From contig CAVWLW010000034.1 of the NCBI GenBank assembly GCA_963755715.1, positions 60,638 through 124,637 on the forward strand: DNA of 64,000 nucleotides. The letters are read 5' to 3'. The notes below the pieces were generated by a model. The model was given only the letters and a program-made list of their open reading frames with translations, was not told the DNA's origin and searched no databases. The translations under genes were made by a program, and so were the position numbers. Within the stretch, counting starts at the first letter, position 1; the number at the start of each line of letters is the position of its first letter. The DNA is from an uncultured delta proteobacterium. Lineage in GTDB: Bacteria; Desulfobacterota; Binatia; UBA9968. Shown here one piece after another: positions 25,287-26,328 of the stretch.

Positions 25287-25447
25287 ACAGGGTTTAACTC
25301 TAACCAACAGGCCGAGCCGACGCAATACTCGTCCCGACGCCGAATTCAGGCGCCCGGCAAAGAGAAGCTAGGAAAAAAATCGTGCTGCTGTTTACATGCG
25401 GGATGGATTTAATTTCGTGTCGAACGAATTTGAATCTAACGACGGCC

Positions 25448-25490
25448 AAAAACACAAGGCCCTCCAAGTTGTCACTGGAGGGCTCTGTGT
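25448..25490 (-). terminator. Rho-independent terminator of the small Lys-rich peptide transcript
   Basis: Minus strand ACACAGAGCCCTCCA-GTGACAACT-TGGAGGGCCTTGTGT-TTTT. Confidence 0.7.
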
Positions 25491-25570
25491 ATTAGGCAAC
25501 CAGAACGGTTACCTTGTTGCCTGAGAGTCAGGAGGGTTTAAATCACCACCACAACCCCACAACTCCGTAT

Positions 25571-25621
25571 TTACTTCTTTTTCTTTTTGGCTTTCTTCTT
25601 GGCTTTCTTTTTAGCAGCCAT
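25571..25621 (-). CDS. 16-aa Lys/Ala peptide MAAKKKAKKKAKKKKK (below ORF-track cutoff)
   Basis: AAGGAGGT SD 4 nt before ATG; mixed AAA/AAG Lys codons; TAA stop; own promoter and terminator. Confidence 0.7.
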   Translation of the reverse strand: MAAKKKAKKKAKKKKK

Positions 25622-25734
25622 AAGCACCTCCTTTTAGGATTCCACGGGCGGGCTTTTCGATTGACAGGCGTTGAAAATTGACTCAGGCAAGAGAAACGAA
25701 ACTAAAAACCCTCCCATATTTTGTAGGTGATCCA

Positions 25735-25764
25735 ATTATTAGGACACAACAGATTGTATGTCAA
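25735..25764 (-). promoter_or_regulatory. Sigma70-type promoter for the Lys-rich peptide gene
   Basis: Minus strand TTGACA-N17-TAATAAT with a T-tract upstream of -35. Confidence 0.65.
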
Positions 25765-26328
25765 GAAAAAAATATCATTTTACAAAATATTTTGACGCGT
25801 GCGCTGAAACTTTGCCGACGAGCAATTCAAACTGTGATCAAGCAATGACGGCGAACTAAGAGATAGCGATTAACAGCAGAGCGTTTTATTGCGACGTTTG
25901 ATGTCAAGGATCAAAAAAGCATGTTGAGGAAAATTTTTGGGCGTCTAAGCGAGGGGCGATCAGAATCGCAGCTGCACAGTCAAAGCACAGTGGCGCGGAG
26001 ATTACCGCGCGAACGCTCCGACTTCACTCAATCCGTAGCGCCTTGATCATTTTGGGGCAAGTGGGGGATGCAGGCGGCGAGCTTTTGCCGCAATAGGCGC
26101 TTGCGGGCGCGCTCCGATGGCGCGGATAAACCCATCGCGGAGTAAATGCGCGGCGGCGGCACAGATAGGCGGCGCTGATGACCACGAAGGCAGGTGATCT
26201 ATCGGAAGGAGATTTAGGGCTTTGCCAAGAACTGTGCGCTCGACCATACCGCAAGTGGTAATGATACGAGCGGCTTGTCGTCAAGATCTGGGGAGCAGGG
26301 TTTGTCAGGAAAACATTCTGCGTGGGTG

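Follow-up and report, generated by a model that had tools for sequence, protein, structure and literature searches.

The subject of this analysis is a micro-gene specifying a Lys/Ala-rich peptide of 16 residues, located on the minus strand of a 64,000-nucleotide (nt) stretch of DNA from an uncultured member of the Binatia (contig CAVWLW010000034.1; the whole stretch is termed the window, and its positions are used throughout). In order of transcription the unit comprises a promoter, a leader, a Shine-Dalgarno (SD) sequence, a small open reading frame (sORF), a hairpin and an intrinsic terminator (Table 1). A preliminary description had listed these elements, all of which are present; it had missed their strand, the conservation and structure of the untranslated regions (UTRs), namely SD occlusion, pairing of the 5' with the 3' UTR and the covarying hairpin H3, and the recurrence of such genes in other lineages. 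Its view of the locus as a stand-alone transcription unit overlooked by gene callers is supported; the targets it put forward (nucleoid, ribosome, polyphosphate or RNA) stay hypothetical. Conservation, transcription and coding of the gene are established, and its function we infer.

The sORF reads ATG GCT GCT AAA AAG AAA GCC AAG AAG AAA GCC AAA AAG AAA AAG AAG TAA. Its 16 codons specify 11 Lys (69%; five AAA and six AAG), four Ala and one Met, just as first described for a 51-nt ORF using both Lys codons, and three bases (CTT) separate the SD from the ATG. The peptide has a net charge of about +11 and, after probable removal of Met, would be a ~15-mer. The promoter, given earlier as TTGACA-N17-TAATAAT, is the same site as the AATAAT hexamer with its 18-nt spacer, read one base earlier; the -10 hexamer reads TATAAT or TATACT in many relatives, and the promoter block ATTTTTTTCTTGACATAC showed no variation in the 26 loci (of 27 found by BLAST) that include the promoter. 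Transcription would start near 25728, giving a leader of about 107 nt (close to the ~105 nt originally proposed) and a predicted monocistronic mRNA of ~280 nt (25728->25450).

Table 1. Elements of the micro-gene in order of transcription; positions are those of the whole 64,000-nt stretch.
Feature	Position	Strand	Details
A/T-rich upstream tract and -35	25759..25781	-	hexamer TTGACA 25764-25759, perfect
-10 AATAAT	25740-25735	-	spacer 18 nt; 11/12 consensus matches
Leader block B, GGGAGGGUUU, SD-like	25706..25715	-	complement of 3' UTR block B'
Helix P1, 5' strand, U+GCCUGAG	25682..25689	-	7 invariant pairs + 1 covarying pair
SD-pairing leader pyrimidines	25637..25650	-	CGCC 25650-25647, UCC 25639-25637
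Shine-Dalgarno AAGGAGGTG (RNA AAGGAGGUG)	25633-25625	-	9-nt perfect complement of own 16S 3' tail
sORF MAAKKKAKKKAKKKKK, 16 residues	25621-25571	-	ATG at 25621, TAA 25573-25571
G/U-rich spacer 3' of stop codon	25541..25570	-	core GUGGUGGUG conserved
3' UTR block B', AAACCCUCC (DNA AAACCCTCC), anti-SD-like	25539-25531	-	possible partner of B or SD
Helix P1, 3' strand, CUCAGGC+A	25518..25525	-	CTCAGGC core 25525-25519
3' UTR hairpin H3	25514-25494	-	stem 8 bp; conserved loop GUUCU
Intrinsic terminator	25448..25490	-	stem 25483-25459, extendable to 25490-25452, then T-run; covarying

Promoter-like sites numbered one in 2.3 kb against 1.6 expected, so their count is not above chance; the promoter block of 18 nt is unique in its own genome. 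Among ORFs of 8-45 codons containing at least 45% Lys, 12 occur in this 7.4-Mb genome and only the present one has an SD. The genome contains the 9-mer SD at 32 sites, and at 12 of them a start codon follows. Searches with BLAST showed conservation of the whole length of the unit among relatives. The promoter of the genome's own rRNA operon (contig C75, upstream of 16S) has the style of the micro-gene promoter, with TTGACAT, an A/T-rich upstream tract and a -10 element TATAAC.

Coding constraint and distribution in the Binatia

We aligned 32 distinct units (alignment A1), 26 of them found by BLAST using the 351-nt unit as query. The ORF is open in all 32, with the same ATG position and the same SD core, and terminates with TAA (24 units) or TAG (8 units); every ORF length is a multiple of three, insertions being of 6 or 12 nt and in frame. 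The SD core AAGGAGG and the ATG are invariant, and variation occurs at two of the nine SD positions. Column counts were limited to BLAST-found units to avoid bias from the search pattern; 21 of the 26 have 15 or 16 codons, and in these 21 nine of the ten variable ORF columns fall at third codon positions (hypergeometric P ~5e-5). Pairwise codon differences in the same set were 598 synonymous vs 20 non-synonymous, figures that overstate the effect because related sequences are not independent, which the column count does not. Ala codons stay Ala despite synonymous change. The preliminary description had proposed to look in related genomes for a conserved frame and SD; both are kept there, with changes almost only synonymous, so that the test it had set itself came out in its favour.

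Peptides of the Binatia family span 12-19 residues and include MAAKKKAKKKAKKKK(K), MATKKKAKKKAKKKK(K), MAVKKKAKKKAKKKKK, MAAKKKAKKKAAKKKKK, MAAKKKAKKKAKKKTKK, MAAKKKAK(A/T)KKKAKKKR, MAAKKKAKAKPKKKAKKKK, MATKKKAAKKKAKKKKK, MAAKKKAKKKKK(K/R), MAKKKAKKKKKR and MAKKAKKAKKKKK. These forms indicate that charge and composition are kept, and that exact length and the placement of Ala are not. In the commonest of them (23 of 32 units, including that of the window), Ala occupies each fourth residue in an AKKK period, so that in a helix the Ala residues would fall along a single face; the pattern is missing from the shorter forms.

The unit is present as a single copy in its own genome, and of the 123 genomes of the order that were searched by BLAST, 81 have a full-length match at 67-96% identity. 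By family, matches occur in 75 of 89 genomes of the window's own family (f1), all five of a second (f2) and none of 28 of a third (f3), hence in two of three families; within f1 they extend to 24 of 25 genera, including that of the window. Four matching genomes are unpublished (G005, G481, G484 and G498, the first being the source of row L008 in alignment A1 and also entering the PF08213 and spermidine-synthase searches described below); omitting them gives 71 of 85 genomes in f1 and leaves the conclusions unchanged. Most of the 14 unmatched f1 genomes are incomplete metagenome-assembled genomes (MAGs; 60-98% complete). Matching public contigs are labelled Candidatus Binatia or, in some cases, Deltaproteobacteria, Chloroflexota or Syntrophobacter MAGs. 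A phylum-wide BLAST search of 401 genomes retrieved only low-complexity matches outside the window's own family. In family f3, the pattern SD+MxxKKKxKK was found in none of five complete genomes, and no Lys/Arg-rich sORF was found in the 1.5 kb upstream of ccdA. We conclude that the micro-gene is a bona fide, vertically inherited, single-copy gene of two Binatia families. In one MAG of the same genus two contigs each carry the unit, and the two matches score identically (G003:C25:188367-188705 and G003:C26:27874-28212), which reflects either a true duplication or a redundant assembly.

Genes neighbouring the unit were compared across loci; in the window the labels TlpA, CcdA and FolE were assigned by eye, not by family search. 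In genus g1, ORFs labelled TlpA (thioredoxin-fold), then CcdA and FolE lie downstream on the same strand, and the upstream neighbour varies. In other f1 genera, represented by the six loci whose sORF matched the first search pattern, tlpA starts ~1.1-1.3 kb after the sORF in five loci and ~0.4 kb after it in one, and in the one f2 locus read (L021) the unit is separated from ccdA by an ORF of 277 residues that by eye looks alpha/beta-hydrolase-like. This comparison suggests that chromosomal position is inherited, yet that the unit is not the dedicated leader of one gene.

Transcription and structure of the mRNA

Sequencing runs of DNA from soil and sediment (n=14) contained ~0.9 of sampled words of a 601-nt stretch including the unit, and metatranscriptome runs (n=6) contained 0.34-0.45 of them, corresponding to about the length of the unit. 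RNA contigs covering the unit, the transcript evidence that had been called for in the preliminary description, were obtained from four metatranscriptome runs, each from a different study: 25385-25677 (X15), 25458-25716 (X16; 259 nt with zero mismatches), 25491-25709 (X18) and 25497-25710 (X20). None of the four covers 25300-25384 or 25720-25900, and their extent hints weakly at agreement with the ends of the predicted transcript. The X15 contig ends at 25677, 4 nt past GCCUGAG, and continues with 17 letters unlike the window, which resemble a sequencing adapter; this end, from a single contig, may mark a fragment or a processed 5' end in the A/U-rich stretch 3' of the P1 5' strand.

Structure was analysed with RNAalifold and pair counts on alignment A1, and by ensemble folding of all 32 RNAs. 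Pairs of units are on average identical at 0.65 of positions in the 5' UTR, 0.81 in the ORF and 0.69 in the 3' UTR; judged from the alignment, the UTRs are constrained as much as the ORF. The whole transcript folds somewhat better than shuffled sequences (z -2.36; 3 of 200 shuffles doing as well). The terminator stem covaries, and H3 shows compensatory changes at seven of eight pairs around a conserved GUUCU loop. Leader pyrimidines CGCC and UCC (as in the window) pair with GGAGGUG of the SD, 97% of alignment cells being paired, with 40 one-sided changes that keep the pair (A/G opposite U, C/U opposite G), seven unpaired cells and one double change; in the 32 ensemble folds the mean pairing probability of the SD is 0.75, mostly with upstream bases (0.53). 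By comparative analysis, the leader folds into an SD-occluding hairpin, and the 3' end is capped by the covarying H3 together with the terminator.

Pairing between the UTRs is suggested by helix P1, in which GCCUGAG of the leader and CUCAGGC of the 3' UTR form seven invariant pairs. The flanking pair covaries (C-G in 25 units, U-A in three, U-G in three and unpaired in one, among the 32). The two cores are unchanged in 88 distinct units, 56 of which came from a metagenome scan that did not require these blocks, and in one clade among the 88 the flanking pair is replaced by an A.G mismatch; invariance of the cores neither proves nor disproves that they pair. Blocks B and B' (GGGAGGGUUU:AAACCCUCC) are paired in 92% of cells, with one-sided changes only and no double changes among 88 sequences, and their pairing is therefore unproven. 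Because the elements follow one another as B, P1 5' strand, B', P1 3' strand, B:B' would either form a pseudoknot together with P1 or replace it. Pairing of the SD with B' is compatible by sequence yet was never chosen in nested ensemble folds of the 32 RNAs. The G/U-rich spacer keeps its composition across all units, and no partner for it was found in the alignment and pair analysis. Overall, the 5' and 3' UTRs would pair so as to put the tiny ORF in a closed loop.

Similar micro-genes in other lineages and comparison with known systems

Two pattern scans retrieved further genes of this kind: scan 1, of species genomes, used SD + MAxKKKA, and scan 2, of metagenomes, used M-A-x-KKK-A-KKK-A-KKK. 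Both patterns force N-terminal residues and bias residue frequencies and codon-position counts; an early stop, an SD, a terminator or recurrence is not forced. Scan 1 retrieved at least 119 loci; among the matches listed, 61 were closed ORFs of at most 30 residues, 16 of them representing the Binatia unit. By contig title the other short ORFs belong to Acidobacteriota/Terriglobia, Dormibacterota, Bdellovibrionota, Gamma- and Alphaproteobacteria, Eisenbacteria, Moranbacteria, a Woesearchaeota MAG and others. No relationship is seen among their promoters, leaders or terminators, and a terminator-like site lies within 200 nt downstream in 30 of 45 such loci, compared with six of 45 reversed controls (again among the matches listed). 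Neighbours of the analogous units had nothing in common in the loci listed. Peptides of other phyla contain AAKK/PAKK-like repeats. A Dormibacterota genome (G443; L151 at C4:56324-59366, and L155) has three Lys/Ala micro-ORFs of 22, 24 and 24 residues, two of them in tandem 400 nt apart, and an acidobacterial genome (G444; L148, L153) has two, MATKKKAAKKKKKK and MATKKKGGKKKGGKKK; such multiple copies in single genomes indicate that the micro-genes form small families in some lineages. Scan 2 retrieved at least 120 loci, at least 62 of them with the full Binatia blocks, together with at least four other families having different UTRs. Of these, the MATKKKAKKKAKKK family has its own TTGACT/TATACA promoter and the MAAKKKAKKKAKKKAKKK family directly follows a gene end; codon-position counts in other (AKKK)n families are not evidence because the pattern fixed positions 1 and 2.

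Long Lys/Ala-rich proteins sharing the MAxKKKA start appeared alongside the micro-ORFs in scan 1. In Moranbacteria (MAGs of the candidate phyla radiation) and Bdellovibrionales there are pure (V/A/T)KK-repeat proteins of 35-59 residues that start with MAAKKKA and are intermediate between the micro-ORFs and long H1-like proteins.

Searches of established families returned little. Rfam gave no match at gathering score in the window and none at E<=10 on 25350-25850; around 20 analogous loci no match overlapped a unit, the only ones being tRNA and two sub-threshold chance matches. Ten related peptides of 20-51 residues matched no family of Pfam or NCBIfam at E<=10, and a PDB sequence search with a relative of 24 residues gave no match. 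No description of such Lys/Ala peptides was found in the literature searched, subscription journals lying largely outside that search; the main text of two Breaker-lab surveys of sORF candidates describes no lysine-rich ones, and their supplements might list such motifs. The Binatia peptide belongs to no named family, and its kin by kind are small basic proteins encoded by sORFs and Lys/Ala-rich binders of polyanions.

The ribosomal micro-proteins bS22, eL41, mS38, bL37 and bTHX are specific, non-repetitive sequences of 24-33 residues. Like bS22, its analogues eL41 and mS38, and bL37 and bTHX, the Binatia peptide is very short, mostly Lys/Arg and probably helical, and comes from an unannotated and probably strongly expressed sORF: 69% of its residues are Lys (more than half Lys/Arg being typical), its SD is a perfect 9-nt complement and its RNA is found in four studies. 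It differs from them as a low-complexity (A)KKK sequence of 12-19 residues and variable length. In Borrelia, bS22 is a tiny basic ribosomal protein of ~30 residues, 61% Lys/Arg, that had gone unannotated and is, according to that report, likely present in more species (PMC10618245). Composition and a short-period repeat style are shared also with H1-like Lys/Ala(/Pro) proteins, such as AlgP, Hc2, PhaF and the PAKKA repeats of Ku, HupB and TopA. Such proteins and tails are reported to bind DNA, polyphosphate granules or RNA by charge (PMC9239181, PMC2848022, PMC12818456, PMC3553676, PMC5714199). Whereas these sequences run to tens or hundreds of residues, or else form the tail of a folded protein, the Binatia peptide is a free 12-19-mer having its own promoter, structured mRNA and terminator; it has neither a long repeat array nor a folded domain to which it forms a tail, and the ten related peptides searched match no family.

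Proposed function and alternative explanations

We consider the product to be, more likely than not, a translated polycationic micro-protein that would bind cellular polyanions, its translation gated by its own mRNA. Since the type of peptide is what unrelated units have in common, the peptide would be the product under selection; selection would then act on the peptide itself, not merely on the act of translation. As envisaged, an mRNA of ~280 nt ending at the intrinsic terminator would be made from a promoter of the sigma-70 type that is close to consensus and preceded by an A/T-rich tract, and the perfect 9-nt SD would drive synthesis of the Lys/Ala peptide, an encoded polycation acting by charge on cellular polyanions. 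GCCUGAG:CUCAGGC pairing, possibly alternating with GGGAGGGUUU:AAACCCUCC, would close a loop around the ORF. The mRNA elements plausibly shield the 5' and 3' ends, leave the SD only partly accessible and bring the stop codon near the start. The UTRs could govern stability and the rate of translation for a product that might do harm and that perhaps feeds back on its own RNA. That peptide length varies suggests action by charge and not by a tight fit. RNA or ribosomes are a possible target, slightly favoured because such strong signals for translation and so elaborate an mRNA are reminiscent of RNA-binding proteins under autogenous control, and bS22 offers a precedent. The resemblance to the Lys/Ala repeats of H1-like proteins and to the long Lys/Ala-rich proteins of scan 1 suggests instead DNA and the nucleoid, a somewhat unlikely target, or polyphosphate, which together with any others is a distinctly improbable one.

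Several observations weigh against this interpretation. The peptide product and its binding are deduced from sequence, and feedback of the peptide on its own mRNA is pure conjecture. The RNA contigs indicate presence, not strand, ends or level, and that from X15 passes the terminator by ~60 nt, to 25385. Peptide length and Ala placement vary (12-19 residues) while several UTR blocks are invariant, a combination to be expected of a loose role based on charge and equally compatible with one centred on RNA. The likeness to ribosomal micro-proteins is an analogy, a 16-mer being too short for a homology test against ribosomal or nucleoid families. A six-frame search with PF08213 (COX24_C, bS22) gave nothing over cut-off in the window's own genome or in any of 41 genomes of the order, with no contrast between families having and lacking the unit, but at the same threshold the model scored in only one of 14 control genomes, so that its silence carries no information. 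The 5' half of H3 (within 25494-25518) matches the h44/h45 junction of the genome's own 16S rRNA (G000:C75:35710-37267) at 13 of 14 bases, a region that in other ribosomes forms the pocket of bS22 and eL41. Mimicry of rRNA by H3 was rejected: we treat the likeness as chance because 29 of 300 shuffled transcripts scored as well and the H3 stem covaries freely. The remaining UTR blocks are absent from the 16S gene, two 7-mers occurring elsewhere in the 10.5-kb rRNA region.

An explanation centred on RNA would make the UTR elements primary and the tiny ORF secondary or RNA-controlling, in a dual-function or mainly regulatory transcript whose CCCUCCU (anti-SD-like), GGGAGGG (SD-like) and GUUCU loop would act in trans on mRNAs, the 30S subunit or an RNA-binding protein. 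Dual-function small RNAs (sRNAs) that also encode a small peptide are known, of the SR1, RNAIII and SgrS type, and the Binatia transcript resembles them in its ~280-nt structured form, tiny ORF and conserved unpaired C-rich and G-rich motifs. We retain this explanation because the UTR blocks are more invariant than peptide length: GCCUGAG and CUCAGGC are fixed in 88 units, peptides of the family vary from 12 to 19 residues, and the loop of H3 is kept while its stem covaries. It gains also from staphylococcal sRNAs, whose C-rich motifs are reported to target SD sequences (PMC2790875). We nevertheless judge it unlikely, given that the substitution pattern of the ORF is clearly protein-coding, that unrelated units elsewhere share the peptide type and not these RNA elements, that Rfam offers no match even at E<=10, and that the candidate seed B' has a partner in cis.

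Control in cis by a sensor ORF, in which ribosome speed on Lys codons (reflecting tRNA charging or modification, or translation stress) would govern the downstream tlpA-ccdA-folE region through read-through or stability, is an improbable alternative. The unit does resemble amino-acid-sensing leader peptides and attenuators in having a small ORF dominated by codons for a single amino acid (11 of 16 codons are Lys), a terminator downstream and, in all loci inspected, a same-strand gene beyond it; moreover, the X15 contig crosses the terminator and no second promoter-like site was found ahead of tlpA. Unlike in attenuators, however, the terminator is far from the stop codon: 80 nt separate the stop codon from the terminator stem, and the spacer, B', P1 and the independently covarying H3 intervene; no antiterminator pairing coupled to the ORF occurs in the consensus fold or the 32 ensemble folds. 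The next gene differs between genera and families (tlpA in g1, the hydrolase-like ORF in L021, tlpA at a distance in most other-genus loci) and none downstream is Lys-related, the Ala codons change synonymously and go on specifying Ala, and analogous units elsewhere lie in unrelated neighbourhoods. A lysine-sensing leader, which the preliminary description had doubted, is on the same grounds unlikely. Almost no weight attaches to the notion that the real gene is the 55-codon antisense ORF of the plus strand (25514-25681; Leu/Phe-rich, hydrophobic) or an upstream ORF from the leader ATG at 25717. Both frames are open in the window, but they are not conserved across the 32 units and were rejected: the antisense frame ranges from 21 to 95 codons stop-to-stop, with no start codon in 11 of 32 units, and the leader ORF from one to 47 codons, with shifting frames and its ATG missing in one of 32. 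Promoter and terminator lie on the minus strand, and read in the antisense frame the variable sites would be first positions of codons. A type I toxin-antitoxin system does not fit either, the peptide being polycationic without a hydrophobic stretch and the antisense frame unconserved. The idea of a polyamine substitute was rejected as well: spermidine-synthase-like domains occur in 41 of 41 genomes, whether the unit is present or not, with no complementary pattern.

Taking the polycationic peptide as the product, a broader proposition is tentative and falls a little short of an even chance: in bacteria of many phyla, free oligolysine peptides (Lys/Ala-rich, 12-27 residues, some (AKKK)n) would come from a class of strongly expressed, stand-alone genes that has gone unrecognised; these encoded polycations would act on ribosomes and RNA or on the nucleoid, and would have arisen or persisted with promoters, leaders and terminators that differ entirely from lineage to lineage, the Binatia version having a closed-loop, SD-occluded mRNA self-tuned by peptide or ribosome. 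In its boldest form, the peptide would be a minimal filler of an rRNA pocket of the eL41/bS22 type. Gene callers do not see peptides as short as 12-19 residues, and trypsin destroys those made of lysine only, so a whole class of abundant polycations could have been missed. Were the peptide to bind ribosomes, the list of lineage-specific ribosomal micro-proteins would extend to uncultured phyla; were it to bind DNA or polyphosphate, no smaller protein of the nucleoid or of granules would be known. With invariant and putatively paired 5' and 3' UTR elements around a 51-nt ORF, the Binatia mRNA could serve as a compact model of how cells dose a potentially toxic polycation.

Upstream of the promoter, ~560 nt (25765-26328) without a long ORF separate it from the next minus-strand gene, which encodes 337 residues and is DsbA-like by eye; at locus L009 the same gap between promoter and gene is only ~160 nt.

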